64,000 nucleotides of DNA from a virus (lineage: Duplodnaviria; Heunggongvirae; Uroviricota; Caudoviricetes), in the IMG/VR virus record IMGVR_UViG_3300015615_000629, positions 432,711 to 496,710 of that record. One strand, written 5' to 3'. The notes beneath the pieces were generated by a model, which was not told where the DNA came from, ran no database searches, and was given only the letters and a program-made list of their open reading frames with translations. Positions within the stretch are counted from its first letter, which is position 1; the number at the start of each line of letters is the position of its first letter. Of the stretch, positions 3,518 to 36,345 are shown piece by piece. Position numbers and translations under genes: made by a program.

Positions 3518-3572
3518 AAAATTGTAAGATCTAGCTGGATATATAAGGTGTCTAAAAAGGAATTTGACACCT

Positions 3573-4586
3573 ATGAAACCTAAAATTCTATTCATTTGCA
3601 AGAAAAGACTCAGCAGCTACGGAATTTCAGTCGGACTTTCAAATTCCGCTAAATTTGCTGCTAATTATTTAAATAAACACGGTATCGAAGCCAAAGTTGT
3701 CAACGTTGTCGATAACAACTGCATCGACCGTGAAGTAACCACCTATAACCCAACCCATGTAATTATTGAAGCTCTCTGGGTTGTGCCTCCTAAGTTTGAA
3801 ATCCTACTTCCTTTGCATAAAAATAGGAAGTGGTATGTCAGAATCCATAGTAAAGCCCCCTTCCTTGCCGGTGAAGGTATCGCTATGGATTGGATTAATG
3901 GTTATCGAGAAATTCACCAAAAACATAAGAACTTCCACATTTCCTGCAATAATTCAGAATTTAATGACGAATTAAACACCATTTTCCCAGACCTATGCAG
4001 CGTTTATCTGCCCAATGTCTACTGCGTCGAGGGAGAAGTTGAACAACATTGCCACCGCCATCACCACGATGTAAATATCGGTTGCTTCGGTGCTGTTAGA
4101 CCACTTAAAAACCAGTTAATTCAGGCTATGGCCGCTATCGCCTTCGCTGATGAAAATAACTTGAAACTTAAGTTTCACATGAACGGCGAAAGAATTGAAC
4201 ATGGTGAAAATATTATCAAAAATATTCGTGCTATGTTTGATGGAACCTGCCATAAATTAGTTGAACATCCTTGGATGCCGCATAATGAATTCCTTAAGTT
4301 GGTAGCCAAAATGGACTTAGGACTACAAGTAAGCCTTTCGGAAAGCTTTAATATTGTGAGTTCTGACTTTGTTCATTGTAACATCCCCCTTATTGTTTCA
4401 CCGGATATTTCTTGGATGCCTTGTATCTTCCAAGCCAATCCGAATTCAATGAAAAGTATTGTTTCAAAATTAAATTTCGCTTATTATACAAAAGACCTAT
4501 ATACCCACAAGGCAGCCAGCGTTGCCCTTTGGTGGTATAACCAAAAGGCCGGATTCGTCTGGCAAGATGTCCTTGGACTTTATTAA
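3573..4586 (+). CDS. Hypothetical protein; possible GT-B-like sugar-pathway enzyme
   Basis: The track begins at TTG 3564. The first ATG is at 3573, with AAAGGA upstream. N-terminal KILFICKK...YGISVG is reminiscent of a GT-B/PseG-like beta1-loop, but no decisive motif is present. Confidence 0.4.
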   Translation: MKPKILFICKKRLSSYGISVGLSNSAKFAANYLNKHGIEAKVVNVVDNNCIDREVTTYNPTHVIIEALWVVPPKFEILLPLHKNRKWYVRIHSKAPFLAGEGIAMDWINGYREIHQKHKNFHISCNNSEFNDELNTIFPDLCSVYLPNVYCVEGEVEQHCHRHHHDVNIGCFGAVRPLKNQLIQAMAAIAFADENNLKLKFHMNGERIEHGENIIKNIRAMFDGTCHKLVEHPWMPHNEFLKLVAKMDLGLQVSLSESFNIVSSDFVHCNIPLIVSPDISWMPCIFQANPNSMKSIVSKLNFAYYTKDLYTHKAASVALWWYNQKAGFVWQDVLGLY

Positions 4587-5200
4587 TGAGTTTCAGATTA
4601 TTTGTAGAGAAAACTTCTACATCCTATAGTTTTTCGTCGCTCCAATTCGACCTGCCGCAATTTCTGGCAGATAAAGTAATGGATTGGGGACAAAAACACA
4701 TCCCAGAAAAGAATGTCTTCACGGCCGAAAACAAATTTGGTCGTGAAGATAATATCCATCTTACCGTTCTCTACGGTATCCACGCCCAAGAACCACATAG
4801 AATTGTTAAGATTCTAAGAAGTTATCCTCAATTTAATATAAAGCTAGGCCCAATTTCACTTTTCACCACAGACGAACGTTTCGATGTTCTTAAAATCGAT
4901 GTCAAAAGTGAAGATTTAATGAAGTTAAATAAATTCATAAGAGACAGTATTCCGTACTCTACTAAGCATAAATCCTACCAACCACACATAACCATTGCCT
5001 ATATCAAAAAAGGCACCTGTAGGGATTTGGTAGGAAAACAGCCGTTCGATCAAGAGATAGAGGTTAAGAACCTTATCTTTAGTTCAAAGAACGGCTCAAA
5101 GAGCAAAATAAGGCTTACTAAGAGTAACTATTTACATGAAGCTTATATTGGCTATGGACTTAGTGAAAGACCAAATCAATGGTGTTTCAACTACAATTAA
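4586..5200 (+). CDS. 2H phosphoesterase superfamily protein (LigT / Acb1-like)
   Basis: Two H-x-T-x motifs, HLTVLYG and HITIAYI, lie about 90 aa apart, the hallmark of 2H cyclic phosphodiesterases. ATG at 4586. Confidence 0.6.
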   Translation: MSFRLFVEKTSTSYSFSSLQFDLPQFLADKVMDWGQKHIPEKNVFTAENKFGREDNIHLTVLYGIHAQEPHRIVKILRSYPQFNIKLGPISLFTTDERFDVLKIDVKSEDLMKLNKFIRDSIPYSTKHKSYQPHITIAYIKKGTCRDLVGKQPFDQEIEVKNLIFSSKNGSKSKIRLTKSNYLHEAYIGYGLSERPNQWCFNYN

Positions 5201-6137
5201 TGAACTAACTCCATACCTTAATGAACGTTTTGATGAAGTTAAAGTAATTTCCCCAAGCCTATTCAAAGTCTATAAGCCATATCTCTATCCGGAAGTCTCT
5301 CTGGCGTATGGTATTACAAATAGTAAACTTGCCGAAATAATTGGCCCAACTAAGTCCACCTGCATTCATATCTTTACGGAAGGCCCAATTGGACTTAAAG
5401 TTAGAAACTACTGCGTTAGAAATAAATTAAAATTTACAACTTCTTATCTCACACATTTTGCTGAACAGTTAAAGAACATTACGTACCTGCCAGAATGGCT
5501 CACATACGCCTATCTGCGTTGGTTTCATAGAGATTCCAACAAGATAATTGTGGCAACCAATACCATTAGAGACCATCTTAAAAGCAAGGGTTTCAAAAAT
5601 AAAATAGAACCATGTTCTAAAGGCGTAAACACCACGGTTTTTCATCCATATAAACGAGATAACACCACAAAGCCTTTAATCGCCTATGTGGGCAGGGTTT
5701 CTAAGGAAAAGAATATAGAAGCCTTCTTGGATTGTAAATTTGATTGTGATAAAGTAGTAATTGGCGATGGCCCATATAGAAAGACACTACAAAGCAACTA
5801 TCCGAATATTAAGTTCGTTGGTTATTTAAAAGGAAAGGATTTGGCTAAGGCATATTCCGATGCAGACGCAACTGTATTTCCTAGTTTAACTGATACCTTT
5901 GGTTTAACCATTATCGAATCGCTAGCATGCGGCACGCCCGTGGCGGCTTTTCCGGTAACTGGCCCTAAAGATATCTTAACTCCGGAAACCGGTGGTTTGG
6001 ATTGGGATATTGACGTAGCAATTTCCAAGGCTCTTAATTCCAATTCTCAGGATTGTATAGAATTGGCGGCTAAGTATTCATGGAGTGCTTGTGCAAATTG
6101 CTTCGTTAGAAACCTTATCATAACTAAAAATGGATGA
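5136..6137 (+). CDS. GT4-family (GT-B) glycosyltransferase
   Basis: VGRVSKEKN...VIGDGP...SDADATVFPSLTDTFGLTIIESLACGTPVAAF is the retaining GT-B E-X7-E region. ATG at 5136. Confidence 0.75.
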   Translation: MKLILAMDLVKDQINGVSTTINELTPYLNERFDEVKVISPSLFKVYKPYLYPEVSLAYGITNSKLAEIIGPTKSTCIHIFTEGPIGLKVRNYCVRNKLKFTTSYLTHFAEQLKNITYLPEWLTYAYLRWFHRDSNKIIVATNTIRDHLKSKGFKNKIEPCSKGVNTTVFHPYKRDNTTKPLIAYVGRVSKEKNIEAFLDCKFDCDKVVIGDGPYRKTLQSNYPNIKFVGYLKGKDLAKAYSDADATVFPSLTDTFGLTIIESLACGTPVAAFPVTGPKDILTPETGGLDWDIDVAISKALNSNSQDCIELAAKYSWSACANCFVRNLIITKNG

Positions 6138-6885
6138 TATAAGAAGTGTTTTTATCAGCGATGTACATCTTGGTTCATCTTATGCAAAACCTGATATTTT
6201 ACTTGAATTTCTAAAATCTGTTAAAAAACAAAAACCACTTTTTTTATACATTGTGGGTGACTTCATAGACGGCTGGAAAATGGGTCGTGGCTGGTGCTGG
6301 ACAAACACATCCACTCTTTTGATTAAAGAAATTTTAGATTTTGTCAATAATGGCACCCAAATTCTTGTCACCCCAGGAAATCACGACGAATTTATGCGTG
6401 ATTTTCTAGATACCTTCAAATCCCTTAATTTCGGAAATATAGAAATTAAAGAAGAATTCATCCACGTTTCCGCCACTGGCGAAAAACTTCTCGTTATGCA
6501 CGGCGACAGCTTCGATTTCGTAACTCGTTATGCTCCTTGGCTTTGCAAACTAGGCGATATTGGCTATGAAACCCTAATTATGTTAAACCATTTGATTGAC
6601 AAGATTAGGCGTGTATTTGGTAGAACCACCTATTATTCCATGAGTAAAGCCATTAAATCCAAGGTCAAACAAGCTGTCAATTATGTTGGCGACTTTGAAG
6701 CCTTCCTTGTAAAGTATGCAGAAGAGAAAGATTGTACCGGTGTAATTGCTGGACATATTCATACTGCTAACCTTAAGGAAATAAACGGGTTAAAGTATAT
6801 GAATTGTGGGGATTGGGTGGAAAGTTATACGGCAATTATCGAGAAGAATGACGGAACCTTTGAATTGTTTGATTACTACTCATAA
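6130..6885 (+). CDS. LpxH-like calcineurin-type metallophosphoesterase
   Basis: The full ordered motif set is present: ISDVHLG, GDFIDGW, GNHD, MHGD, GHIHT and NCGDW. It aligns with UDP-2,3-diacylglucosamine hydrolase family members. ATGGATGA overlap with the upstream stop. Confidence 0.7.
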   Translation: MDDIRSVFISDVHLGSSYAKPDILLEFLKSVKKQKPLFLYIVGDFIDGWKMGRGWCWTNTSTLLIKEILDFVNNGTQILVTPGNHDEFMRDFLDTFKSLNFGNIEIKEEFIHVSATGEKLLVMHGDSFDFVTRYAPWLCKLGDIGYETLIMLNHLIDKIRRVFGRTTYYSMSKAIKSKVKQAVNYVGDFEAFLVKYAEEKDCTGVIAGHIHTANLKEINGLKYMNCGDWVESYTAIIEKNDGTFELFDYYS

Positions 6886-6910: not shown

Positions 6911-7543
6911 ATGAGTAAAAAGCGTTTAATCATTATTGTTGTAGTGTTTGTATTGGCTTGTTTTTGTGCCAAGACCTATGTCTTCGACCACAAAACACAG
7001 CCAATTCCTTCTATTCCTCATCATGAGAAATACGAACAATATGAGGAAGGCCCATCTTCTCCTTATGAATTACAGAAGATTGATCCTGTAATTGAGGAGT
7101 TGTTGGACGCCCATAATGCTGAAAGAAAGCGTCAAGGCAAATTAGAGTTAGCTGACGATCTTTGCGAAGCGGCTCAACAACACGCCGAATGGATGGCAAA
7201 ACACAACAATATGACCCATAAAGGATTTCAGCAAAGAATACCTTCTGGGTATTCTGGAGCAGGTGAAAATATTGCTATGGGACAGGATAGTGTTGAAGAA
7301 GTCGTAAATGCTTGGATGCATTCTTCAGGACACAGGGCTAATATACTAAATAGTAGCTTTAATTGTGTTGGATTTGGCGTAGCAGAATCAAATAACGGCA
7401 CTAAATATTGGTGTACAATGTTGGGGAACAAACAATGGACTTTAATGGATTCCTTGCAGAATCATCCTATAATCAATTATTTCAAAGAACTGTGGAATCA
7501 TTTCCTCAAACGACAGCCCGACAACACGCAACCCAGCAAATAA
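6911..7543 (+). CDS. CAP/SCP/PR-1 (YkwD-like) domain protein, signal-anchored
   Basis: GGAGG SD upstream. There is an N-terminal TM/signal, IIIVVVFVLACFCA, then LDAHNAERK, GENIAMG and AWMHSSGHRANILN motifs. Confidence 0.65.
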   Translation: MSKKRLIIIVVVFVLACFCAKTYVFDHKTQPIPSIPHHEKYEQYEEGPSSPYELQKIDPVIEELLDAHNAERKRQGKLELADDLCEAAQQHAEWMAKHNNMTHKGFQQRIPSGYSGAGENIAMGQDSVEEVVNAWMHSSGHRANILNSSFNCVGFGVAESNNGTKYWCTMLGNKQWTLMDSLQNHPIINYFKELWNHFLKRQPDNTQPSK

Positions 7544-7953
7544 AGACTTCTGGATTAGTAATTACACCGTTTTTGGGATTAAAGACGCTTTTCGTTAAAG
7601 CAATAGCACAAAATGAGAATCGTGAGAACACTGCTATCATTCTGTTTAAAAATATTGCTTACGACGGCAGCGGCCATAATCTGGTTCAATTTGTTGCTAG
7701 CGATGGTCATGATTACGTATTGGAGAGAATTTCGTTAGCAGAAAACGATGTTAATGTCCGTTGTACTTGTAAAGACTTCCAATGGAGATTCAATTATTTT
7801 GACCATCTAGACCATTCTCTATATGGCAAGAAGCGTAAGAAATATGAAGCCATTCATCGCCCTGGATCGGCAAACCCCAACGAAGCCGCTGGGGTTTGCA
7901 AACACATTATGGCTTTAGTCGAGCATCTGAAGGAATCGGGGTTGATTGGTTAA
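7435..7953 (+). CDS. SWIM zinc-finger protein
   Basis: CTCKDFQWRF...GVCKHIMALVEHL is a CxC...CxH SWIM signature. The track start is TTG 7408 and the first ATG is 7435. Either start overlaps the CAP-protein tail, so the start is uncertain. Confidence 0.45.
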   Translation: MDFNGFLAESSYNQLFQRTVESFPQTTARQHATQQIKTSGLVITPFLGLKTLFVKAIAQNENRENTAIILFKNIAYDGSGHNLVQFVASDGHDYVLERISLAENDVNVRCTCKDFQWRFNYFDHLDHSLYGKKRKKYEAIHRPGSANPNEAAGVCKHIMALVEHLKESGLIG

Positions 7954-9364
7954 AAACCATTTTAACGCCTAAAGAATTCGATTCTGATTGATTAAAGATT
8001 ATTTTTTCGCACTGTGAAACGGATAAGTTAGATTTTATTCGGTTACAATTGTTACATTTTAAATCATAATCGGAGGCTCCATATTTACTCTTAGGTTGTT
8101 TGTGATCAATTTGACAATTTTCTTCGTTTAATTTAATTCCACACATGGTACAGCGGCCATCTGATTCTAATTTGGCAATTGTTTTACTAATGCTTGGTAT
8201 GTCACGATTCTTTTTACTTAAATCAAAATTAGAAGCCAGTAATTCCTCCAATATTGTAAATCTATCTTCTATTGTTCCTGTATTGTCTTGATTTGATTTT
8301 AAATTTTGTTTATCTATACGCTTATAGAATTCTAGAATTACACTGTACATTTTATCCATGTTTTCTCTTATTTGAGAAATGGTTAAAACTTCTTCTTGTT
8401 GTTTTTTAACTAAAAATGCCAAAATATCTTTTAATGTATTTTGTTCAAGGATTTTGCCTATCTCATGTTTAAAGTCTAAAACATCCGAGACAACGTGACA
8501 CGTTCTCTTTAGAGTCTCAATGTTCTTCTTAATTTTAAGATCGTCAAGCATTATTTCTGTCACAAAACTTTTTTGATCATCTGTAATTTTTGAATTTTTT
8601 TCCAAATATTGCAGAATTTTATTGTCCAATTCTTTTATTGCTTCTTCTGCGACGATCTTTCTATAGCCGAATTTATCAGTAAAGGTAGGACCAAAACACA
8701 TATAACATACTGTATTGCACCACCTATATCCAGAGTATCTTCTGTTGTTGCTTAATTCTGCTCTTAAATGTTTTTTAAGAGGATTAAAGCAATAATTCCA
8801 AATATAATCCATTAAATTTTTTGTAAAAAAGTTATTGCAATATAAAGATTCATTCTTTTTCAGATTTTGCATAGCATTTATTCTTTCAAACAATGCACGT
8901 TGTTTCAACAAAGGCATTGGCTCCCATTGGACAACATTAACACCATAATTTACAAAAGGCAAATAATATTTTGTTTTAGCAATATCTCCGAATTTCATAA
9001 GTTTGTTTTCAATTTTTATTGCGAAAATATTATTGTAGAAATCTCGTATACATTGAAGCCTCTGTTTGCCATCCAATACATTGAATATAGTCGCTTCGGG
9101 AACTTCAATGTGTATGTTTTCACGAACTGTGGTTCGTGTTTGTGTAGTGCTTTGCTTGACCAAATGGCAGGTGCCGATAGGAATTCTATATAATATTGAT
9201 TCAATCAAATTAACTTTCATTGGTTTACTCCAGACATCATTTCCGCGTTGGTATGGAGTATCAAACTCACACAATGGGAACATTCCATGTAAGGTTGTAA
9301 TTGGAATTAGGCTTTGTTCTTGCTTTGATAAGTCTTCTGCTGTTAATAAATCGTCGATATTCAT
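7907..9364 (-). CDS. DUF262 (ParB/Srx-like, DGQQR) plus C-terminal HNH nuclease, GmrSD-like fusion
   Basis: VLDGKQRL is the DGQQR-type motif, and CTMCGIKLNEENCQIDHKQP...CNNCNRIKSN is an HNH motif near the C-terminus. ATG at 9364. It is the only minus-strand gene within a plus-strand block. Confidence 0.65.
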   Translation of the reverse strand: MNIDDLLTAEDLSKQEQSLIPITTLHGMFPLCEFDTPYQRGNDVWSKPMKVNLIESILYRIPIGTCHLVKQSTTQTRTTVRENIHIEVPEATIFNVLDGKQRLQCIRDFYNNIFAIKIENKLMKFGDIAKTKYYLPFVNYGVNVVQWEPMPLLKQRALFERINAMQNLKKNESLYCNNFFTKNLMDYIWNYCFNPLKKHLRAELSNNRRYSGYRWCNTVCYMCFGPTFTDKFGYRKIVAEEAIKELDNKILQYLEKNSKITDDQKSFVTEIMLDDLKIKKNIETLKRTCHVVSDVLDFKHEIGKILEQNTLKDILAFLVKKQQEEVLTISQIRENMDKMYSVILEFYKRIDKQNLKSNQDNTGTIEDRFTILEELLASNFDLSKKNRDIPSISKTIAKLESDGRCTMCGIKLNEENCQIDHKQPKSKYGASDYDLKCNNCNRIKSNLSVSQCEKIIFNQSESNSLGVKMVFNQSTPIPSDARLKP

Positions 9365-10196: not shown

Positions 10197-10763
10197 ATGC
10201 ACGATAAAAATCCAGATTTTACAAAACGTCAATTACAAGTTATTCGAGGAACCATTTTAGGAGGTTCCTCTATAGTAAAACCCAAAGCAGGAACCAACTG
10301 TTATCTGTCCATACGCTCTAAAAACAAGACTTGGTTTGAATTTAAAATAGCAGAATTAGAGAATTTTTCAAGACAACATTCAATTCATTCGGATGTTACT
10401 TATCGCTGGCAATCTACCTGTTATCCTATCTTTAATGAATTTAGGGAAGAATTTTATCAAGAAAATGCCAGGAATTTAAAAATTGACAGTCTAAATGTAC
10501 TTACCGACGTTGCTATGGGGATTTGGGTAACAGATTCCGCCAAACTACTTAAAAACTCTCTAATACTTAAAACTAACATCTGGGGTAAAGATGGCACGGA
10601 AGTTATCAATGAATATTTTGGATTAATTGGATATAACTCTAAAGTTATACTGGAAAAAGGTTTATATCGAGTCCAACTCGATGAAGAATCAAGTGAAAAA
10701 GTTAAAAAACTAGTTTCTCCGCATTTAGCAATATTTTGGAGTAGATTACATGTCACCAGATGA
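10197..10763 (+). CDS. LAGLIDADG-family homing endonuclease (two-motif, single chain)
   Basis: VIRGTILGGSSI and LTDVAMGIWVTDSAKL resemble the two LAGLIDADG helices (LxGxxxGDGS / WxxDDG-type). ATG at 10197. Confidence 0.5.
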   Translation: MHDKNPDFTKRQLQVIRGTILGGSSIVKPKAGTNCYLSIRSKNKTWFEFKIAELENFSRQHSIHSDVTYRWQSTCYPIFNEFREEFYQENARNLKIDSLNVLTDVAMGIWVTDSAKLLKNSLILKTNIWGKDGTEVINEYFGLIGYNSKVILEKGLYRVQLDEESSEKVKKLVSPHLAIFWSRLHVTR

Positions 10764-12006
10764 AATAGTAAAGACTCTCAAAAAGAATGTCCTAATTCCA
10801 GAACAACCTTTTGTAGTGGATACTGACAAATCTATAGGCTCTTGGATATTTGATTCTGTAACAGCCAAATTTTATCTAGATTGCTTTTCTCAATATGGTT
10901 CCCAACCAATTGGTTGGAATCATCCTTTACTCCTAGCCAGAAAAGACGAAATAGCGGACGCTGCTATTCATAAAGTTGCCAATTCCGATATGCTCACTAA
11001 AGTTTATGCTCAGTTCATGAGTAGATTTTCTAAGATTACCAAAGATTTTAAAAACCACTTTTTCATTTGTGGTGGAGCTTTGGCAGTTGAAAACAGCCTA
11101 AAAGCAGCATTTGATTACAAGGCTCAAAAACTGAACCTATCAGAAAAACAAGTAAACAATTTAGATGTTGTTCATTTGAGAGATGCTTTTCATGGAAGAT
11201 CCGGTTATACATTGTCGCTAACAAACAACAGTAAAACTACCCTTAAAACAAAAAGATTTCCTAAATTCAATTGGACTACAGTTACAAATCCAAAAATTAC
11301 ATTTCCAATCGATGAAAATAAAGTTAAGAACCTGGAAACATCTAGTTTACTTGAAATCGAACACGCCCTTAAGAAAGGAAATGTAGCAGCCCTAATTGTG
11401 GAATTGATCCAATCTGAGGGAGGAGATCACCATTTCAGAAAAGAATACATTAAGGAGTTAAGGAAAATTACAAAAGACTATGATGTTATGTTTATAGTCG
11501 ATGAAGTTCAAACAGGGATGGGAATGACAGGTAAGTTATGGGCTTATCAACACTTTGACATTGTGCCTGATATGCTTGTATTTGGCAAAAAGACTCAAGT
11601 TTGTGGGTTCTGCTCTACAAATAAGATTAATGAGATAGAAGACAATGTCTTCAAAACAAGATATAGGATTAATTCTACATGGGGTGGCAATTCAACAGAT
11701 TTTGCTCGATCTACTATCTACATGGACATCATTGAATCCGAAGGATTAGTTGAAAATGCTAGAAGAAAAGGCGATCTGCTAAGAAAATTGCTGGCGAATT
11801 TTGAAGTTTCAAATATAAGGGGCAGAGGACTAATCTTAGCATTTGATCTAGAGAATGAAGAAGAAAGAGACAAATTCTTTAAGAAAATCAAGAAAAAGAT
11901 GCTTGTTCTGCCTTGTGGGGAGAAATCAATCCGCTTTAGACCACATCTAGACATCACTGAAGCAAATATCTTAAAAGCTGCCCAATTCGTTTCAGAATGT
12001 CTTTAA
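10750..12006 (+). CDS. Class-III PLP-dependent aminotransferase (lysine 6-aminotransferase-like)
   Basis: FIVDEVQTGMGMTGKLWAYQHFDIVPDMLVFGKKTQVCG contains the DEVQTG...GK signature and a PLP-lysine region. GGAG SD upstream. Confidence 0.75.
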   Translation: MSPDEIVKTLKKNVLIPEQPFVVDTDKSIGSWIFDSVTAKFYLDCFSQYGSQPIGWNHPLLLARKDEIADAAIHKVANSDMLTKVYAQFMSRFSKITKDFKNHFFICGGALAVENSLKAAFDYKAQKLNLSEKQVNNLDVVHLRDAFHGRSGYTLSLTNNSKTTLKTKRFPKFNWTTVTNPKITFPIDENKVKNLETSSLLEIEHALKKGNVAALIVELIQSEGGDHHFRKEYIKELRKITKDYDVMFIVDEVQTGMGMTGKLWAYQHFDIVPDMLVFGKKTQVCGFCSTNKINEIEDNVFKTRYRINSTWGGNSTDFARSTIYMDIIESEGLVENARRKGDLLRKLLANFEVSNIRGRGLILAFDLENEEERDKFFKKIKKKMLVLPCGEKSIRFRPHLDITEANILKAAQFVSECL

Positions 12007-22901: not shown

Positions 22902-23564
22902 TTAAAGTAACTGGTCGAATTCTGGCCGAAAATATTTACCAATATTTTGCCGTGTTTCTTTTTCCCACTCTTCTGTGGCAAATTTAGGATGTTCTTTATA
23001 ATTGGCGTAAAACACTTTAAATTTATTATCTCCTACCCACGCTTCATGAAGTAATTTGTCGAACCAATCATTTGGTTTATTTCTGGTAGAAAGGATTGTT
23101 ACGTTTTTGGCGTAAGAACATGCCGGTAACAATGCCTTCCAATGTGTATCCATATCTTGTGCGAAAGACATTTCATCTAAAAACAAATAATCCATCGAAC
23201 GACCGCAACAAGATATTGGCGTGCCGAAGTATATTGTAGATCCATTATCAAATTCTACTTGATGATGGTTTGTGCTAACATCGCCCCTTTTTAAAGTCCA
23301 GCGAGCCGCCATACACATTCTATCTGTTTTTGTAACAAACATTGCCTTGGTGTTTGGAGTGCTCAAACAATTCCAATATAACCAATTGCTCATTGTTGTG
23401 GTGAAGCCGCCTTGTCTGAATTTACTGCCAACTACAAACCTGTTTTTACTACATGTTTCAATCAATCTCTTCTGGAAATCGAACAATTCAAATGGAACTT
23501 CTTTAGGGTAGTCTAACGTTACCTCATTCTTGCAATACTCAAAAAATTCTTCGTAATCATTCAT
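22902..23564 (-). CDS. Terminase-large-subunit ATPase-domain paralog (ATPase only, no nuclease domain)
   Basis: FQKRLIETCSKNRFVVGSKFRQGGFTTT (Walker A) and DYLFLDEMSF (Walker B) align block-by-block with the bona fide terminase at 47885..49690 (YQRKVIKDYQKYRFNIISKFRQGGLTTV...FLIIDEAAF...THWK). Confidence 0.6.
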   Translation of the reverse strand: MNDYEEFFEYCKNEVTLDYPKEVPFELFDFQKRLIETCSKNRFVVGSKFRQGGFTTTMSNWLYWNCLSTPNTKAMFVTKTDRMCMAARWTLKRGDVSTNHHQVEFDNGSTIYFGTPISCCGRSMDYLFLDEMSFAQDMDTHWKALLPACSYAKNVTILSTRNKPNDWFDKLLHEAWVGDNKFKVFYANYKEHPKFATEEWEKETRQNIGKYFRPEFDQLL

Positions 23565-24543
23565 TTTTATTCTCCAACATAATTTTAACTAATTCTTCAA
23601 AACTTGTTTTAGGTTCCCAGCCTAGTTTCTCTTTTGCCTTTTTTGAACATCCACGTAAAAATGGCACTTCATTAGGCCGCATAAACTTTTCAGATTCAAC
23701 TACGAAATCCTTCCAATTCAAATCATAATGCCCAAATGCAACCTCAAGGAAACGCTCGACTGTATTAGTCTCCCCAGTAGCTATTACGTAATCATCGCCC
23801 TTGTCTTGTGCCAACATCAATCGCATTGCTTCCACATAATCCTTGGCATATCCCCAATCTCTAGATGCATTTAAATTGCCGAGTTCAAGTTTGGGGTAAT
23901 TAGCAGGATCTAAACAACAACGATATCCCTGAATATAATTAACTATCTTTTGCGTTACAAAATTAGCCCCTCTTCTGGGACTTTCGTGGTTAAACAGTAT
24001 TCCTACACTAGCATGTAATTTATATGTATCTCGATACATCTTCACCATTTGATGAGCCGCTACTTTGGCTACCGCATAAGGAGATACAGGCTCAAACGGA
24101 GTAAGTTCATACTGGTAGTCTACTATCTCGCGGGCGAGATTTGTCCACGCTTTACCGAATTGTTCCGAAGAACCAGCTTGGTAAAAGCGTGCTTCGGGAC
24201 AAATATTGCGATACGCCTCAAGTAGATTAACACAGCCGGTAGCAGTTACTTCAAAGGTATATTTGGGATTCTCATAAGAGATGCCTACATGGGACTGAGC
24301 AGCCAGATTATAAATTTCATCTGGCTTGTACTTAGACAACAAGGCACATAAACAATTAGAATCCGTTACGTCACCATGTTCAAGAGTAAGTTTGGGATGA
24401 TTAACTACACTACTTAATCTCCACAATCCACCCGATGTGCTATGACGACGAATTAAACCAATGACTTCATGACCATCAGCCAAAAGAGATTCGGCTAGAT
24501 AAGAGCCATCCTGACCATTAATCCCTGTGCAAAGGACTTTCAT
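23557..24543 (-). CDS. gmd: GDP-mannose 4,6-dehydratase
   Basis: CTGINGQDGSYLAESLLADGHEV, LAAQSHV, SPYAVAKVAAHQM and FNHESPRRG are canonical Gmd (SDR-extended) motifs. Confidence 0.85.
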   Translation of the reverse strand: MKVLCTGINGQDGSYLAESLLADGHEVIGLIRRHSTSGGLWRLSSVVNHPKLTLEHGDVTDSNCLCALLSKYKPDEIYNLAAQSHVGISYENPKYTFEVTATGCVNLLEAYRNICPEARFYQAGSSEQFGKAWTNLAREIVDYQYELTPFEPVSPYAVAKVAAHQMVKMYRDTYKLHASVGILFNHESPRRGANFVTQKIVNYIQGYRCCLDPANYPKLELGNLNASRDWGYAKDYVEAMRLMLAQDKGDDYVIATGETNTVERFLEVAFGHYDLNWKDFVVESEKFMRPNEVPFLRGCSKKAKEKLGWEPKTSFEELVKIMLENKNE

Positions 24544-24920
24544 TTAACCTCTTGTCGCCCATGTGTTAAAGTTTTAAAGACACCCTTAACGTTTTCCATC
24601 CATGTGTTTGCCCAAGGTCCACGAAATGTTAAAACATAAGTTCTGCCAACACTGTTTACCTTATGAAAAGTATCACGTTTGGTAATAATAGGGAAAAGAG
24701 AAGGCTTATGTTCCTCTACCTCTCCGTCAAAGTGTTGTTCAACCAATTTGCCTGAAAATATCCAACTCACACAGTTGAAAGCATGGCTGTGATATGCTTC
24801 ACGTGTGCCATTTTCAAACCTGAGCAAGGCTATGCTAAATAAGGACTTAATTTCAACCAACCAAAAGCCCCAAACATACGATTCAGGGCCACCATCTTTA
24901 CCACGAGATAGTATTTTCAT
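24540..24920 (-). CDS. Hypothetical protein (possible small cupin / sugar ketoisomerase-like)
   Basis: HSHAFNCVSWIFSG resembles a cupin HxH...G metal site. It is adjacent to gmd. Confidence 0.3.
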   Translation of the reverse strand: MKILSRGKDGGPESYVWGFWLVEIKSLFSIALLRFENGTREAYHSHAFNCVSWIFSGKLVEQHFDGEVEEHKPSLFPIITKRDTFHKVNSVGRTYVLTFRGPWANTWMENVKGVFKTLTHGRQEVK

Positions 24921-25104
24921 TTTTTGTTCTCCATTTTAGACATTCAAGACTATAATCAAAAGTGTGATAAATAATAGTTGCCAATATAAAAAATGGCATA
25001 TCTCTCCATCCTAAATTATTAAATGTCCCACCACAATACAAAACCGCTACTATTACCAAAAAATTAAGCAAAAGGCTTCTTAGCAGGTTAATGAAGAATA
25101 TCAT
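24898..25104 (-). CDS. Small 2-TM membrane protein, paralog of 28777..28974
   Basis: Shares (A/T)V(L)YCGG.(F/I)N and LE(C/Y)(L/I)KW(R/T)K blocks with the other copy. Confidence 0.4.
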   Translation of the reverse strand: MIFFINLLRSLLLNFLVIVAVLYCGGTFNNLGWRDMPFFILATIIYHTFDYSLECLKWRTKNENTISW

Positions 25105-26033
25105 AAACTCTCATAAACCTTTCTATAAGACGCCGCACGTTCCTTACTAGAATGATCTTGAACCGTTCTAAACGCCTGATCTCGAATGGAATTCAGTCTA
25201 TCCCAATTGGCCAACGATTCTGTAATTCTAGTCTTAATTAACTCGACATCCTCATTGCTTCCCCTAATTAACTCCATGTTTTTGCCATTATACAAATCAG
25301 GTACATGCCCTACAAGACGAGATAATACAGGAATTCCACATGACATCGCTTCCAAAATAGGCATTGTGCCAGACTCAAAATTATCCACAGAATTACATAC
25401 ATGCAAAGTGGATTGGTGATAGTATTTAAGCAAATCCTTTTCTAAAACATCCTGATGAAAATCAACACTTCCCGTCTTTAAGACGCTGTTCATATAACCA
25501 CTATCAGAAATCCTTCCGACCAAACATAATCTTAAACCCAATTCCTTACACGCCTGTGCTACTTCCAAGACTCCCTTCTTCCCCTCAATTCTACTAACAG
25601 TCATGTTGATGATGTTACTGTTGGATAAATATGGCACCTTCTTGAAAGCCTCTAAATCAATACCCAAAGGGATGATTTCAGCACTAGGCAGTTCACTCTT
25701 TTGATAAGAATTTACTACAAAAACACGAAGATACTCCTCCCAAAGTTCTTCCTTGAGATTATAGGGATTGTAATGAGTTAAAATCTTCTTTTTGTTATCT
25801 GCCCAAAGTTCTGGAAATAGACTTTTAATCTTCGAAGCAGATTTCCAATACTGAGCATCGACAATATCTGCCCATTTTAGACCCTCCCGAGCCGCTTTCA
25901 TTTGGGCATCATCGGGCTTCTTAGGGTGAAAATAAAGAAGTTTGAAGTCTAAATCTTTATTGTATTTCTGAATGTCCAATGCAAGGGTAGTAATGGCCGT
26001 CTTGGGAGCGGGAACAATTTGTAATATTTTCAT
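25101..26033 (-). CDS. GT4-family (GT-B) glycosyltransferase
   Basis: NFESGTMPILEAMSCGIPVLS is the E-X7-E region. Confidence 0.7.
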   Translation of the reverse strand: MKILQIVPAPKTAITTLALDIQKYNKDLDFKLLYFHPKKPDDAQMKAAREGLKWADIVDAQYWKSASKIKSLFPELWADNKKKILTHYNPYNLKEELWEEYLRVFVVNSYQKSELPSAEIIPLGIDLEAFKKVPYLSNSNIINMTVSRIEGKKGVLEVAQACKELGLRLCLVGRISDSGYMNSVLKTGSVDFHQDVLEKDLLKYYHQSTLHVCNSVDNFESGTMPILEAMSCGIPVLSRLVGHVPDLYNGKNMELIRGSNEDVELIKTRITESLANWDRLNSIRDQAFRTVQDHSSKERAASYRKVYESL

Positions 26034-26455: not shown

Positions 26456-27460
26456 ATGAAAAAAGTATTATTCGGCCCGGTTTCAAACGCACCTTCCTGG
26501 GAATGGGTAGGTAAAGATATTGCAGAATCCCTAAAAACACACTACGAGGTAGAATTTTTTACGGATAAAATCACCCCAGCAGATGCTATTTTTGTAATAA
26601 AAAAGCCTCTTAACGCCGGACAACTAAGAGACACCCACGGCTCTAAAATCATCTACATTCCAGTGGATTATTTCACCAGCCACGGACACATCTACTCACA
26701 CCGCAAATTCCTGCAAAGTTGCTCCATAATAGGCGTACATTGCGATAAACTTAAATCTCATTTAGGCAAATTCGCTCTTACCCATAACGTAGAACATTAC
26801 CTAAAATACCCAATAAACCCTACCCCTTACAAAGAAAATGGCTTTGTCCTTTGGATCGGCGTCTATGAAACCTTACCTTTCTTCATAAAATACCTTCAAA
26901 CCAATCCAATTGCAAATGATATCAAAATTCTTACCAATCTCTCCAATAAAAGTGCCGTAGGAAGATCGCACAAATTCCAAGCCCATTACAACATAGACCT
27001 GAATAATATACCATTCAAACTTTATGACTGGACGCCTGAATTACAAGCCCAAATGATGTCCGAAGCCAAAGCGGCTATCGAAATCAAAGATGGGGACTTT
27101 ATAGGCTCTCATAAACCACCTACTAAAGCCCAACAATTCATTGCAAATGGCATCCCATTAGCCTGTAAGGGTTATTACGCAACTAATTATTTTAAAAAAT
27201 ATGGTTTTTCAATTCCGGAACCTAACGACTATTGGCTTTCCAAAAAATATTGGGAGAAAACCCAAGAAATGGCCAAAGTCTTAAGGAGAGACCTGTCTTT
27301 AGAAAATGTAAGAAATAAATATATTCAATTTATAGAAGCAAACGAGCCGCAAATTAAGACTACAACGGTTATAACTAAGGATTCAAAGATTAAAAAGAAC
27401 GCACTTACAATGGAACAATGGAAAAGGATTCGGCGATCTTTGAAGCAACGTGGCGGTTAA
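26456..27460 (+). CDS. Conserved hypothetical protein, paralog of 16948..17883
   Basis: See the paralog for the shared blocks. ATG at 26456. Confidence 0.5.
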   Translation: MKKVLFGPVSNAPSWEWVGKDIAESLKTHYEVEFFTDKITPADAIFVIKKPLNAGQLRDTHGSKIIYIPVDYFTSHGHIYSHRKFLQSCSIIGVHCDKLKSHLGKFALTHNVEHYLKYPINPTPYKENGFVLWIGVYETLPFFIKYLQTNPIANDIKILTNLSNKSAVGRSHKFQAHYNIDLNNIPFKLYDWTPELQAQMMSEAKAAIEIKDGDFIGSHKPPTKAQQFIANGIPLACKGYYATNYFKKYGFSIPEPNDYWLSKKYWEKTQEMAKVLRRDLSLENVRNKYIQFIEANEPQIKTTTVITKDSKIKKNALTMEQWKRIRRSLKQRGG

Positions 27461-28250
27461 GCATATGCCCAGTTCGATAACCAGTTATTTTTCCTTCTAA
27501 TCTACAGCCCAACAACCCAAAATCTCCAATCATATCCAATACTTTATGTCTGGCAATTTCATTATCAGTCTTCATTTCTACCAAAAACTTATCCGTGTAA
27601 ATGATATAAGGGCTTTTCGAACAGTTTTTAGGCAATAATTTAAATTCCTTACGTTTCTTCTCCCACAATTTTCCTTCTTCGTCTAAAGGATAATGCAAAC
27701 AAGTCCTGCTCCAAGAGATTTCTTTCCTGTAAATCAATGGATCAATGGTAAAACCTGCAACTTGTGTCCCTAAAGCATTATCATAATCCATTACAGCAGA
27801 CATGGTTATACCGGAAACTGGAGAAGGCTCTACTTCAATATGTTTGTCATTTAAGTAAAACTTCTTTCTCTCCGAAATTCTTATTAAATTAACTGGTTTT
27901 TGAATTTCTAAAAAACCAGTTTTAGAAATTATTCGTGTAAAAATATCAGAACTAGCACAGAAGGGAACTTCCTCTTGATCTAATTCGATTAAAATATTAT
28001 CCAATCCAAGGCCGTATATGGCAGATAACAGGTGTTCAGTCATAATAACGCGAACACCATCTTTTTTAAGCGTTGTAGTCAAACCTACTTCTTCATGATC
28101 TATAAACTCCAACAAGGCTGGAATAAAGGTATCTTTTACCTTAAAAACAACGCCATTGTCATGAGGATGACAATGCATGGCTATTTTCTTCCCGCTTCTT
28201 AAGGCTCGTCCTTTAAGAGTAAACGAAGAAGATAGTGTGGTTTGTTTCAT
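27405..28250 (-). CDS. LpxC-family zinc deacetylase (UDP-3-O-acyl-GlcNAc deacetylase-like)
   Basis: MKQTTL...GRALRSGKKIAMHCHP...VRVIMTEHLLSAIYGLGLDNILIELDQEEVPF...HKVLDMIGDFGLLG...GYRTGHMLNRHV. This aligns along its whole length with E. coli LpxC, including the HKxLD and GH.LN motifs. Confidence 0.75.
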   Translation of the reverse strand: MKQTTLSSSFTLKGRALRSGKKIAMHCHPHDNGVVFKVKDTFIPALLEFIDHEEVGLTTTLKKDGVRVIMTEHLLSAIYGLGLDNILIELDQEEVPFCASSDIFTRIISKTGFLEIQKPVNLIRISERKKFYLNDKHIEVEPSPVSGITMSAVMDYDNALGTQVAGFTIDPLIYRKEISWSRTCLHYPLDEEGKLWEKKRKEFKLLPKNCSKSPYIIYTDKFLVEMKTDNEIARHKVLDMIGDFGLLGCRLEGKITGYRTGHMLNRHVASKIAESFSIVPL

Positions 28251-28756
28251 TTGGCAAAAATTCCCATCTTATTCTTGCCAGCAAATACGTTTAACTCCCA
28301 AGGATAAAGACTAGAGAATTCTTCATAAGTCCAACCGGAAATATGTTGTTCATTAATGTTGTCATAATGAATTTTTGCTGGACGGATTTCGCCGGAATTT
28401 TCACTTAAAGGGACAGATACAACCACATGATTATATCTGTTTAAGGCTTTAGAAAGAATTTCTTCGGCATCTTGTTTAGGAAGATGCTCAAGAATATCGC
28501 CGAAGATTATGCAGTCAGCAGTAGGTAATTCGACGAAACGAATGTCGCCGATAATGATTCTCTCGTAATACTGCTTTAGATTAAACTGCTCTACGTAAGG
28601 CTCCCAGATTTCAATAGCTATATAATGATATTCTGGGCCTAACAGGCGTGGATAGGTAGCAGAACCAGCCCCAACATCAACAATATACTTAATATCTGGC
28701 TGCTTCTGTAACCACTCTTTAATCTCTTGTTTACCTTGAACTACACTTCCTGGCAT
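28247..28756 (-). CDS. Class I SAM-dependent methyltransferase
   Basis: IVDVGAGSA motif I and IIFGDILEHL motif II/III. Confidence 0.6.
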   Translation of the reverse strand: MPGSVVQGKQEIKEWLQKQPDIKYIVDVGAGSATYPRLLGPEYHYIAIEIWEPYVEQFNLKQYYERIIIGDIRFVELPTADCIIFGDILEHLPKQDAEEILSKALNRYNHVVVSVPLSENSGEIRPAKIHYDNINEQHISGWTYEEFSSLYPWELNVFAGKNKMGIFAK

Positions 28757-28776: not shown

Positions 28777-28974
28777 TTACTCCAATTTAGTCCATTTAAT
28801 ATATTCAAGCGTTAAATCTATGACAATGAAAGTAAAAATAACGGGAAAGAAAAACAGCCAAAACCTAAAGTTTATAGCATTTATGCCGCCGCAATAAACA
28901 GCAGTTGACATTACCAGCATCGAAAGAACGAACCCTCTTATAAATTCAATTTTGTTTCTTGTCATAATTGTCAA
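28777..28974 (-). CDS. Small 2-TM membrane protein, paralog of 24898..25104
   Basis: Hydrophobic. The first of three overlapping small TM ORFs. Confidence 0.35.
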   Translation of the reverse strand: MTIMTRNKIEFIRGFVLSMLVMSTAVYCGGINAINFRFWLFFFPVIFTFIVIDLTLEYIKWTKLE

Positions 28975-31571: not shown

Positions 31572-32417
31572 TTATTTCTCTATTTGAACAGGAGCCTTCT
31601 GAACAGGTACAGTAACCAACGGCATTATTCCACCACTTCCCACAAACTGTGGCGAAATTCCATTCCACTTTTGAACCATGCCATATTGAATCAACTCGGG
31701 CGTTATACTCTCAGCCAATATCTTGTTAGCCTTAGCCTGTGCCTCCGCTACCATCAATATCGACTGTGCTTCACCTTCCGCTTCCGCAATTTGCTGCCGT
31801 GCTTCAGCCTCTGATTGCTTCACCTTGTTCTCAGCCTTAATCGCCAACTGTGAAGCCTCAATTGTCGCATTAATAGAAGCTTCTACGGACTGATCCACAC
31901 GTAATTTGCCCACAATCGCTATCGTATCAAATACAAATCCATCCTTCTCTAACTTAATCTGTAAATCAGACTTGATCTGCTCCAACAAGTCCTGCCGCAT
32001 TACCCCAAAAATATCCATCACCTTCATCTTGCTGGCATGAATCGTAAACGCATCCCTCACCTGCTGCCGCAAATATTGATGAGATACGTACTCTATATCC
32101 TTACGTAAATCTACAAAAATATGAGCAACCTTATCTTCCCGAATCCGGTAACTAACACTCACATCACACTCAACACGAGTACCTTCTACCGAGTTAAATG
32201 TAATAGCCTCTTCCCCAACCCAATTTACCATATTTAAAAATGTAGGGAATTTATACACTTCAGTCGTGAAAGGATTATACCAAACCCGTCCCGTCTTTAA
32301 GGGGAAATCTTCAACACCCTTTTGATTGCCATATTGATTTACCTTGATACCTACATATCCAGGCTCAACCTTCGCACAACCAGCCAACACCAAAACACCA
32401 ATCAACAAATAACGCAT
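31572..32417 (-). CDS. SPFH/Band-7 (stomatin/prohibitin/HflC-like) lipoprotein
   Basis: Lipobox LVLAGC. VEPGYVGIKV...LKTGRVWYNPF...VECDVSVSYRI is an SPFH-domain N-terminal pattern. A C-terminal A/E/Q-rich coiled-coil follows. Confidence 0.65.
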   Translation of the reverse strand: MRYLLIGVLVLAGCAKVEPGYVGIKVNQYGNQKGVEDFPLKTGRVWYNPFTTEVYKFPTFLNMVNWVGEEAITFNSVEGTRVECDVSVSYRIREDKVAHIFVDLRKDIEYVSHQYLRQQVRDAFTIHASKMKVMDIFGVMRQDLLEQIKSDLQIKLEKDGFVFDTIAIVGKLRVDQSVEASINATIEASQLAIKAENKVKQSEAEARQQIAEAEGEAQSILMVAEAQAKANKILAESITPELIQYGMVQKWNGISPQFVGSGGIMPLVTVPVQKAPVQIEK

Positions 32418-34929: not shown

Positions 34930-36345
34930 CTAAATTGTTTTTATATATCTCAAATGCCCTGCATCCCAAATTCTATCATAGCCATTTAACTTCATAATCT
35001 CATATTCCGGCAAGTCGGTAGAATACCCCTCCATTTTAACCAGTTTATGCTTTTGAAACTTCATCCTGTTAAAAAATTGTTTGTTCTTTATATTGTAATA
35101 CCCATATCCAGGTGAAGTTATCCCATCTAATTTAAATCCAATCTTTTCATACAAACCACCAATAGAATACCTTCGATCAGCATAAGACATAATGCTCTTT
35201 ACATCAAAACACTTCAACAATTTGCTAGCACCTCCAACAATATTCACTCCAAGTCTAGAACAATATCTTTTTAATTCATATCCATATTGTTTGTTCGGTA
35301 CAAGAGTCATGCAGGCGACTAATTCTCCATCGTGATACAAACCATATGCTAACTTAGAGTTGTCACTGCCTTGTAAGTGATTGATATTTAGAAAATTATT
35401 CTTTTCTTCAAACGACAACTCCTTTGACACCGTCTGGCGAGCATAAATTACAGCATTTGTTCTTAAATAGCCAGACAAACGGGATTTAACAATATCTTGT
35501 TTGTTTTCCCATTCATTCTCATATATCTGAATCAGGCGTATACCTAATTTGTCTGCAATTTCGGCTTTTTGAAAATGTAGTTTTTTACCAACTACAGACT
35601 CGGTGTGCCAATACATTCCATGATATTCTACCCCAAGTTTTAGTTCTGGAAGATAAATATCTATTTCTTTATAGTCTAACAAACGCTGATTAGTCTGTAT
35701 TTCACCGGAATGTTTAGTTTTAATGAAATCAGCAATCTCACGTTCACCTCTAGATTGGGACATCTCCCCAACACAACCGGGGCAGGCCAAATCAGACTTA
35801 AGATGTGTATAAGCAGCCTGTTCAAAGTCGCCATGTTTTTTACAAGTTATCTTAATTTTATCATGGGCTTTTGTGTAGTCGCCGTGATAAGTGAATTTGC
35901 CGCCATGCGTTTCAGTTGCTAGTTTCTCGAATGTTTGAACATTATAAGCCACGCCACCTTTACATTTCGGACAACCATTTTTAATGTTTATATGATTTGT
36001 TGCCGATTGGATAAATTCTCCATGATTAGGACAAATTATGGTTACTTTAGTGTAGATTCCATTAACGAGATCAACTTTAGAATAGTCATAAAAATCTCCA
36101 TGAACTTCTCTGGCACGTTTGATAAAAGTTTCTTTGGTGTGCTTGCCTACACCTCTACCAGCACAATGAGGGCAGCCACATTTTAAATGTCGATATGGAT
36201 ACTGTTCTACATCACCATGCCTTGGGCATTTGTAGAGAATCTTGGTAACTTTGTTGACATAAACGGTTTCTGAATAATCGTATTTGTCGCCATGTTTGGC
36301 GGTGGCTTTAACAAAAAACTTGGCTGGACTGGCTTTGCTAGACAT
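34930..36345 (-). CDS. Composite homing-endonuclease-like protein: three tandem Cys/His zinc-ribbon modules, a DUF559/Vsr-like PD-(D/E)xK nuclease and a GNAT-like tail
   Basis: Three repeats of HGDKYDYS..V......CP.HG.F.Q.......GCP.C. GVEYHGMYWHTE...IRLIQIYENEW is a DUF559-type motif. The C-terminal VGGASKLL...LYEKIGFKL resembles acyltransferase motifs A/B. Confidence 0.5.
   Translation of the reverse strand: MSSKASPAKFFVKATAKHGDKYDYSETVYVNKVTKILYKCPRHGDVEQYPYRHLKCGCPHCAGRGVGKHTKETFIKRAREVHGDFYDYSKVDLVNGIYTKVTIICPNHGEFIQSATNHINIKNGCPKCKGGVAYNVQTFEKLATETHGGKFTYHGDYTKAHDKIKITCKKHGDFEQAAYTHLKSDLACPGCVGEMSQSRGEREIADFIKTKHSGEIQTNQRLLDYKEIDIYLPELKLGVEYHGMYWHTESVVGKKLHFQKAEIADKLGIRLIQIYENEWENKQDIVKSRLSGYLRTNAVIYARQTVSKELSFEEKNNFLNINHLQGSDNSKLAYGLYHDGELVACMTLVPNKQYGYELKRYCSRLGVNIVGGASKLLKCFDVKSIMSYADRRYSIGGLYEKIGFKLDGITSPGYGYYNIKNKQFFNRMKFQKHKLVKMEGYSTDLPEYEIMKLNGYDRIWDAGHLRYIKTI

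Follow-up and report, generated by a model that had tools for sequence, protein, structure and literature searches.

A 64,000-nucleotide stretch of viral DNA, positions 432,711 to 496,710 of the IMG/VR record IMGVR_UViG_3300015615_000629, was analysed with a focus on a metallophosphoesterase gene at 6130-6885 and an LpxC-like deacetylase gene at 27405-28250. This stretch, referred to below as the window, is 64 kb out of a 572,167-bp Joint Genome Institute (JGI) metagenome contig, and all statements on its gene content and on absent genes cover 64 of these 572 kb. An earlier note on the same DNA had described the two genes as phage homologs of the lipid A enzymes LpxH and LpxC. Both open reading frames (ORFs) exist as described there, the first encoding 251 amino acids on the plus strand and the second 281 amino acids on the minus strand. 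The features that carry the analysis are the following.

5136-6137 (+), putative Agt-type diacylglycerol glycosyltransferase of glycosyltransferase family 4 (GT4), assigned by similarity to Agt1 and by Pfam domains
6130-6885 (+), predicted PlcP-type metallophosphoesterase (lipid-renovation phospholipase C), 251 amino acids
27405-28250 (-), divergent LpxC-like zinc deacetylase, 281 amino acids, assigned by Pfam, fold, residues and a clade hidden Markov model (HMM)

The phosphoesterase gene and its glycosyltransferase partner

Only a generic calcineurin-like phosphoesterase domain was found by Pfam in the ORF at 6130-6885. The NCBIfam LpxH equivalog models aligned with its product from end to end, and the scores were 50.9 bits with NF003743 and 43.0 bits with TIGR01854, the cut-offs being 134 and 190.35 bits, respectively; the LpxH test was failed in both models. 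Solved LpxH structures matched the protein by sequence at E-values of 1e-7 to 1e-5 only. The defining signature of LpxH is GNRD. In the alignment with the Haemophilus influenzae and Pseudomonas aeruginosa enzymes, this signature was found opposite GNHD of the phage protein, and GNHD is invariant throughout the PlcP family.

When the protein was compared with P. aeruginosa sequences, the product of the PA3219 locus was 43% identical over the full length (E-value 3e-74, 214 bits), whereas the true LpxH of the same species (PDB 5b49) gave 28.5 bits. A Sinorhizobium meliloti protein encoded beside sinR/sinI was also 43% identical over the full length (E-value 4e-75). Both comparison loci were obtained by tblastn of a plasmid collection, in which they are mislabelled chromosomal records. 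The single S. meliloti homolog adjoined genes for an N-acyl-homoserine lactone synthase and a LuxR-type regulator, and from its position we take it to be SMc00171; cyaB, csaA and sinR/sinI were assumed to be the neighbor genes by which the PlcP reference loci can be recognised. In P. aeruginosa, a GT1-family gene overlapped the end of the homolog by 4 nucleotides and was itself followed by an adenylate cyclase gene. Considering that this arrangement fits the published PA3219 (PlcP)-PA3218 (Agt1) operon (PMC8528852), it may be concluded that the P. aeruginosa homolog is PA3219.

The complete set of calcineurin-like motifs (DxH, GD, GNHD, H and GHxH) was present in the phage protein. Its metal-binding residues D11/H13, D44, N84-H85-D86, H124 and H209/H211 were invariant among this protein, the bacterial PlcP proteins and the homolog from Pelagibacter phage Mosig. 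An AlphaFold2 (AF2) model with a predicted local distance difference test (pLDDT) score of 85.9 had an LpxH-like core and a helical lid. The nearest solved fold was that of LpxH, with 19-21% identity and template modelling (TM) scores of 0.52-0.59; no PlcP structure was present in the PDB. More than 3,000 homologs were found, the best with 59% identity, and annotation pipelines often name them 'UDP-2,3-diacylglucosamine diphosphatase'. Downstream of a planctomycete homolog were genes for a BtaA-type protein (DUF3419) and a methyltransferase, and another bacterial homolog was preceded by a glycosyltransferase gene. Such neighborhoods agree with those in the literature on plcP, which encodes the phospholipase C that remodels lipids under phosphorus stress (PMC4796936).

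The glycosyltransferase encoded at 5136-6137 was 39% identical to P. aeruginosa PA3218/Agt1 over the full length (E-value 1e-79). The Pfam domains Glycos_transf_1 and Glyco_transf_4 were found in it, and its top NCBIfam matches were lipid glycosyltransferases. The agt stop and the plcP start share 8 nucleotides, ATGGATGA, as read directly from the DNA, and plcP is predicted to be translationally coupled to the upstream agt. A diacylglycerol-consuming enzyme is thus linked to plcP here in the form of an overlapping Agt homolog. Together, the genes at 5136-6885 would constitute a complete two-enzyme PlcP-Agt module, in which phospholipid is converted to diacylglycerol and diacylglycerol to glycosyl-diacylglycerol.

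The known Agt proteins (Agrobacterium tumefaciens Atu2297, P. aeruginosa PA3218/Agt1 and SAR11 PB7211_960) have in common with the phage protein the GT4 assignment and the pairing with plcP. However, known agt genes lie downstream of plcP, whereas the phage gene lies upstream. Among the known PlcP proteins (S. meliloti SMc00171, P. aeruginosa PA3219, Phaeobacter MED193_17359 and SAR11 PB7211_983), the 43% full-length identity was found with the first two. The bacterial and phage proteins have the same metallophosphoesterase motifs and similar lengths, and a diacylglycerol-using glycosyltransferase is encoded next to both. The bacterial proteins carry an N-terminal extension of 10-15 residues and a C-terminal extension of 20-30 residues, both of which are missing from the phage protein. 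The phage gene also differs in its carrier, a phage of approximately 572 kb, in the 8-nucleotide overlap in the order agt-plcP, and in that no Pho box was found.

On the sequence comparisons, the protein is assigned to PlcP, a sister family of LpxH, and its kinship with LpxH is at the superfamily level only. The earlier note had proposed that it was an LpxH-type enzyme, probably repurposed for the cleavage of nucleotide-sugar pyrophosphates. In favor of a true LpxH or such a pyrophosphatase, it could be argued that the LpxH models aligned with it end to end, although weakly, that LpxH is its nearest solved fold, with the helical lid inserted into the calcineurin-like core at the same position, and that public pipelines label the family as the LpxH enzyme. 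However, the scores fell far short of the LpxH cut-offs (50.9 versus 134 bits and 43.0 versus 190 bits), the signature is GNHD and not GNRD, the P. aeruginosa PlcP matched at 214 bits and the P. aeruginosa LpxH at 28.5 bits, and the neighboring gene encodes a candidate Agt, the partner of PlcP, and not LpxB. In addition, LpxH is placed outside PlcP, as the outgroup, in the PlcP phylogeny literature (PMC9239053). The LpxH or pyrophosphatase identity is therefore largely refuted and highly improbable; of the former assignment, the superfamily relationship stands and the family does not.

Three further ORFs lie on the same strand around this pair.

3564-4586 (+), protein of 340 amino acids without a family match in Pfam or NCBIfam, taken from the ORF layout
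4586-5200 (+), 2H phosphoesterase (2'-5' RNA ligase/ThpR/Acb1-like) of 204 amino acids (Pfam 2_5_RNA_ligase2, 4e-08; Acb1, 1.3e-05)
6911-7543 (+), CAP/SCP (YkwD-like) protein with a hydrophobic N-terminus, taken from the ORF layout and a Pfam CAP match (3.6e-20)

The 2H phosphoesterase gene directly precedes agt, with an overlap of 65 nucleotides at the agt start; its match to Acb1, which acts against the cyclic oligonucleotide-based antiphage signaling system (CBASS), was below the threshold. The ORFs at 3564-5200 form a tightly packed run with agt-plcP, and the CAP/SCP gene is on the same strand. These ORFs are at most candidate members of the module. The CAP/SCP protein, encoded directly downstream of plcP, may be secreted or anchored in the membrane. 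The protein encoded at 3564-4586 was also compared with another family-less protein of approximately 335 residues, encoded at 26456-27460, and the two were not paralogs of one another.

PlcP relatives in viral sequence and the proposed role of PlcP-Agt

PlcP relatives were encoded by at least 570 contigs in IMG/VR, and the neighborhoods of the best 80 were inspected. An Agt homolog was located immediately downstream of PlcP in 30 of these best 80 contigs. The closest relative, with 59% identity, was encoded on a 511-kb viral contig, where a GT28-like gene overlapped the upstream end of the PlcP gene; when the two stretches were compared, PlcP was the sole gene in common with the window. In three contigs of 108-202 kb, a GT2 gene overlapped the PlcP start, and genes for ribonucleotide reductase subunits were nearby. 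Since three unrelated glycosyltransferase families pair with the same PlcP enzyme, a functional hand-off of diacylglycerol is suggested. In the contig designated L107, pstS was found beside the PlcP gene. Another large plcP contig had neighbors typical of marine myophages, namely, genes for a 2-oxoglutarate (2OG)-Fe(II) oxygenase, dihydrofolate reductase and an HD-domain protein. As a separate observation, a CHASE2-adenylate/guanylate cyclase gene preceded the GT2-PlcP pair in two of the 108-202-kb contigs (L073:2249-4306 and L078:1685-3733). The P. aeruginosa adenylate cyclase gene also adjoins plcP-agt (L019:6813-8204), and there may be a recurring cyclase link.

Homologs were also found in deposited phage genomes. 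The gp120 protein of Pelagibacter phage Mosig was 37% identical to the window PlcP, and its gene lies beside a pstS-type gene. The homolog from Synechococcus phage S-SRM01 was 32% identical and is encoded in the psbA island. Both proteins are annotated as LpxH, and their function goes unmentioned in both genome papers. Further homologs were found in a 595-kb uncultured phage and in the human-faecal 'Bacteriophage sp.' contig MT836169 (40% identity). Mosig and S-SRM01 carry PlcP alone, whereas the window phage appears to carry the complete two-enzyme pathway. A literature search found no paper describing a phage-encoded PlcP and none containing both 'plcP' and 'auxiliary metabolic'.

Under phosphate stress, bacteria use PlcP and Agt to put phosphorus-free glycolipids in the place of phospholipids (PMC4796936, PMC8528852, PMC9239053). 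If the phage enzymes act in the same way, PlcP, as a manganese metallophosphoesterase, would cut the phosphodiester of glycerophospholipids (phosphatidylethanolamine, phosphatidylglycerol and phosphatidylcholine), with the release of diacylglycerol and a phosphorylated head group, and Agt would use a uridine diphosphate (UDP)-sugar to attach a hexose or a hexuronic acid to that diacylglycerol. During infection, the pair would be an auxiliary metabolic module turning host phospholipids into phosphorus-free glycolipids. The phosphorus so freed would enter the synthesis of the phage DNA of approximately 572 kb while the membrane is kept intact, and a change of the envelope would come as a by-product. 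The LpxC-like gene, 21 kb away, would belong to a separate module that de-N-acetylates a substrate of the N-acetylglucosamine (GlcNAc) type other than the canonical lipid A intermediate. Taken as a whole, a PlcP-Agt phosphorus module together with a separate divergent LpxC-like deacetylase module is the best explanation of the data and is considered probable. The two genes are not parts of one lipid A story.

Several points weigh against this explanation. The activities of PlcP and Agt are predicted wholly from identities of 39-43%, and the order agt-plcP is the reverse of that in the P. aeruginosa operon. A Pho-box scan found no match near agt-plcP, and matches over the window were at the chance level, although the consensus used is proteobacterial and may not fit the phage or its host. 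A promoter and terminator scan near agt-plcP was likewise at the chance level and gave no convincing promoter. Because both scans were at this level, there was no sign of phosphorus-responsive or infection-timed expression. Finally, the figure of at least 570 contigs overstates the truly viral copies and is to be read as an upper bound for them since some IMG/VR contigs with plcP-agt look bacterial. In one of these (L072, IMGVR_UViG_3300032334_001259, 338 kb), plcP-agt is flanked by curli genes (CsgG and curlin repeats) and FecR.

It is also conceivable that PlcP-Agt is active but was selected for envelope remodeling rather than for phosphorus release. Possible purposes would be to exclude superinfection, to change the receptors on display, to resist membrane-active agents or to control when lysis occurs. 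PlcP-Agt glycolipids have been reported to alter polymyxin susceptibility (PMC8528852), and lipid renovation has been discussed as influencing phage adsorption (PMC9804370, PMC9938194). The abundance of surface-glycan genes in the same window and the Pho-box result near agt-plcP are consistent with this purpose. However, the pstS-type phosphate-binding gene located beside PlcP in both Mosig and L107 points to phosphorus economy. Selection for envelope remodeling is thus regarded as rather unlikely, at about one chance in a handful, and phosphorus scavenging as the presumed purpose of the pair; the two are compatible and not mutually exclusive.

The LpxC-like gene

The claim that the gene at 27405-28250 encodes an LpxC homolog was borne out. 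The Pfam LpxC model (PF03331) matched its product with an E-value of 9.9e-50 and 170 bits, versus a cut-off of 27, over model positions 1-267 of 268. In Foldseek comparisons, the AF2 model of the protein (pLDDT 93.4) gave TM scores of 0.84-0.89 with the LpxC structures of P. aeruginosa, Escherichia coli and Aquifex aeolicus. With the NCBIfam model lpxC (TIGR00325), the score was 118.4 bits, under the equivalog cut-off of 187.25. Residues E72, H73, T183, H235, K236, D239, D243 and H262 correspond to E77, H78, T190, H237, K238, D241, D245 and H264 of the P. aeruginosa (Pa) enzyme, and H73, H235 and D239 are the zinc ligands.

Several canonical motifs were replaced in this protein, namely, the GLH loop, PIMDGSA, ARTFGF and the Insert II motif 'GL..GGS..NAIV'. 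G17-L18-H19 was changed to A-L-R, D104-G105 was lost, G192-F193 was changed to L-H, and the Insert II motif was changed to 'LPKNCSKSPYIIY'. Insert II forms the passage for the acyl chain in LpxC. Every zinc ligand and catalytic residue is conserved, but the motif of the acyl-tunnel region is replaced. Canonical LpxC proteins share the fold, the zinc ligands and the catalytic residues with the window protein at 25-30% identity, but they keep Insert II and the three other motifs. The window protein is also encoded in an apparent methyltransferase/GT4 operon, with the following neighbors.

28247-28756 (-), S-adenosylmethionine (SAM)-methyltransferase-like ORF (Pfam Methyltransf_23, 8.5e-06, 26.0 bits, just below the cut-off of 27)
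25101-26033 (-), GT4 glycosyltransferase (Pfam Glycos_transf_1, 1.7e-12)
23557-24543 (-), GDP-mannose 4,6-dehydratase (GDP_Man_Dehyd, 1.2e-107; NCBIfam gmd, 352.6 bits)

The stop of the methyltransferase-like ORF overlaps the start of the LpxC-like gene by 4 nucleotides (ATGA, read from the sequence), and because of this overlap the two were placed in one operon. Downstream on the same strand, the stretch 23557-26033 contains the GT4 gene, small membrane ORFs and the GDP-mannose 4,6-dehydratase gene. The region around the LpxC-like gene also holds genes for GT2 enzymes, a deacetylase of carbohydrate esterase family 4 (CE4) and a PseF-like cytidylyltransferase. Pfam thus confirmed that both genes singled out by the earlier note are embedded among glycosyltransferase genes. 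Two hydrophobic ORFs of 68 and 65 amino acids, at 24898-25104 (-) and 28777-28974 (-), flank the LpxC-like/GT4 operon. Both contain the motif 'VYCGG' and, close to the C-terminus, 'KW', and they resemble paralogous membrane peptides.

A tblastn search of the window for LpxA, LpxB, LpxK and KdtA found none of them, whereas the LpxC control was matched at 1.7e-21. The absence of LpxA, LpxD and LpxB had been noted before; for LpxA and LpxB it was reproduced by this search, and no such family appeared among the Pfam-scanned ORFs. No other lpx genes were found in the window, in agreement with the view that it does not encode a canonical Raetz pathway.

The relatives of the LpxC-like protein were also studied. 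A word-index protein search returned only true bacterial LpxC proteins, encoded beside lpxK, lpxB or fabZ-lpxA, and it had suggested that the gene was an orphan. This suggestion was overturned by an exhaustive search, which revealed a clade of proteins of approximately 290-300 amino acids with 29-38% identity to the window protein and the same motif changes. A clade HMM built without the window protein gave it 290 bits, and a canonical LpxC HMM gave it 185 bits. Clade members were found in a Candidatus Collierbacteria genome, a Chryseolinea genome, low-GC groundwater and digester contigs and a 1.5-Mb contig. An IMG/VR scan with the clade alignment yielded matches of only 24-29% identity, and the close clade was not found there. 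By these comparisons, the protein is classed in an uncharacterised, divergent variant branch of the LpxC family.

No lpxA, lpxB, lpxK or kdtA was found within 10 kb around the LpxC-like gene at the clade loci, whereas the nearest canonical LpxC matches do adjoin lpxK, lpxB or fabZ-lpxA. A gene with an FGE-sulfatase domain was a neighbor at 10 of 25 loci and overlapped the LpxC-like start by 4 nucleotides in L053-L055. The other conserved neighbors encode a protein of approximately 400 amino acids without a family match and, downstream, a radical-SAM-like protein with a CxxxCxxC motif. These neighborhoods were taken from the CPR-like (candidate phyla radiation) contigs L034:9338-10477, L036, L039-L041, L048 and L052-L055. 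Lipid A genes have been reported as absent from CPR bacteria (PMC5220378). The conserved neighborhood has the look of a pathway not yet described, in bacteria believed to be devoid of lipid A.

None of the FGE-sulfatase-like, 400-residue and radical-SAM-like neighbors has a homolog in the window, and they are therefore uninformative on the role of the phage enzyme. When the window was compared with stretches from the clade loci, the LpxC-like gene was the sole gene in common. SPFH/Band 7 genes lie a few kb from the LpxC-like gene in the window (31572-32417, minus strand) and at two clade loci (L031:5285-6061 and L033:6678-7454). They were also found near PlcP in a planctomycete contig (L009:1630-3728), and this may be a coincidence.

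Most likely, the LpxC-like protein is an active-looking deacetylase from a phage pathway for glycans or glycolipids, and its substrate would be of the GlcNAc type. The repurposing that had been proposed in the earlier note is thus probable for this gene, in which the catalytic residues are intact and the tunnel region is rewritten within a glycan operon; for the gene at 6130-6885, predicted to encode a PlcP phospholipase C, it did not stand. The protein could instead be a working LpxC, a UDP-3-O-acyl-GlcNAc deacetylase that raises or deregulates the committed step of host lipid A synthesis. This would agree with the conservation of the fold and of every catalytic and zinc residue. Basic and aromatic residues are also kept (K at Pa142, R at Pa261 and Y at Pa160), at positions that we take to be UDP-contacting in LpxC. 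Moreover, an LpxC-like gene directly follows a gene annotated as PagP in Vibrio phage K566. Against this possibility, the protein remained under the LpxC equivalog cut-off (118 versus 187 bits), and the Insert II motif is replaced together with GLH, PIMDGSA and ARTFGF. A 105-bit margin puts it in a clade that holds a Collierbacteria genome, CPR bacteria are reported to be without lipid A genes (PMC5220378), and clade members have no lpx neighbors within 10 kb. In the 64-kb window, lpxA, lpxB, lpxK and kdtA were not found, and the K566 protein represents a different branch. A role in lipid A synthesis would count against the explanation by two separate modules; it is possible but less likely, and we consider it improbable.

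K566 deserves mention in its own right. In this cultured 255-kb vibriophage (OZ196521.1 171561-172827; L137:3535-4801), an LpxC-like 'hypothetical protein' with Insert II deleted is encoded after the gene annotated as PagP. PagP is a lipid A palmitoyltransferase, and the two K566 genes may be a genuine phage lipid-A-modifying pair.

Phage context and biological meaning

The window is phage DNA and derives from a huge phage with a T4-like head, as seen from the following hallmark genes.

36442-37884, major head protein
38854-39570, T4-type prohead protease
44227-46767, portal protein
47885-49690, full-length large terminase

Homing endonucleases, DNA methylases and a Toprim protein are likewise encoded in the window. 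Neither near-identical DNA nor a close relative of the window was found among cultured or deposited phage genomes, and a tRNA scan of the window yielded no tRNAs and hence no hint of the host.

Some other genes of the window were also recorded. For the 220-residue product of 22902-23564 (-), the match to the large terminase (PHROG 2, E-value 9e-18) was confined to the ATPase portion. A full-length terminase is encoded at 47885-49690, and the shorter ORF may represent a terminase fragment that arose by splitting or duplication, or else an ATPase that stands alone. Mobile elements within the phage genome are represented by a TnpB/IS605 OrfB-type protein at 59120-60214 (-), a LAGLIDADG endonuclease at 10197-10763 (+) and a 471-residue HNH homing endonuclease at 34930-36345 (-), the last adjoining the major head gene. 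The protein encoded at 7907-9364 (-) combines GmrSD_N (DUF262-type) and HNH domains, an architecture of type IV restriction enzymes directed against modified DNA that is here encoded by a phage. A class-III aminotransferase encoded at 10750-12006 (+), an unusual metabolic gene for a phage, scored 463 bits with an L-lysine 6-transaminase model whose cut-off is 521.

PlcP-Agt is a known bacterial module in a carrier so far unreported. Bacterial growth and phage production are both limited by phosphorus in many lakes and over much of the ocean, and phages are known to respond to this with genes for uptake and regulation, for example pstS and phoH. A phage pathway from phospholipids to glycolipids, if true, would add the host membrane as an internal phosphorus reservoir. 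One copy of the 572,167-bp genome contains approximately 1.14 million phosphorus atoms, and an E. coli-sized cell has roughly 10^7 phospholipids, to an order of magnitude. By these numbers, the host membrane could supply phosphorus for on the order of ten genome copies. According to a 2025 study, it is little known how lipid remodeling shows in infected cells (PMC12282109).

The label 'UDP-2,3-diacylglucosamine diphosphatase' on the PlcP family invites false readings of 'lipid A genes in phages'. The LpxC-like clade, of which this phage and at least one CPR genome carry members, represents an unassigned branch within a family for which a single reaction is otherwise known. A broader reading that joins both modules is offered tentatively, and its two parts are less likely than not to hold together. 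According to this reading, PlcP would serve to rewrite host membrane lipids during infection, not only by huge phages but also by many smaller ones from marine and fresh waters. In the window phage, the enzyme of the LpxC-like clade, which CPR bacteria also have, would contribute to a de-N-acetylated (glucosamine-type) glycoconjugate or glycolipid, by analogy with the combination of a GT4 and a deacetylase in mycothiol, bacillithiol and glycosylphosphatidylinositol (GPI) synthesis. If this is true, PlcP together with a GT4, GT28-like or GT2 enzyme, depending on the lineage, would represent widespread and unrecognised phosphorus auxiliary metabolic genes behind the 'LpxH' annotation.

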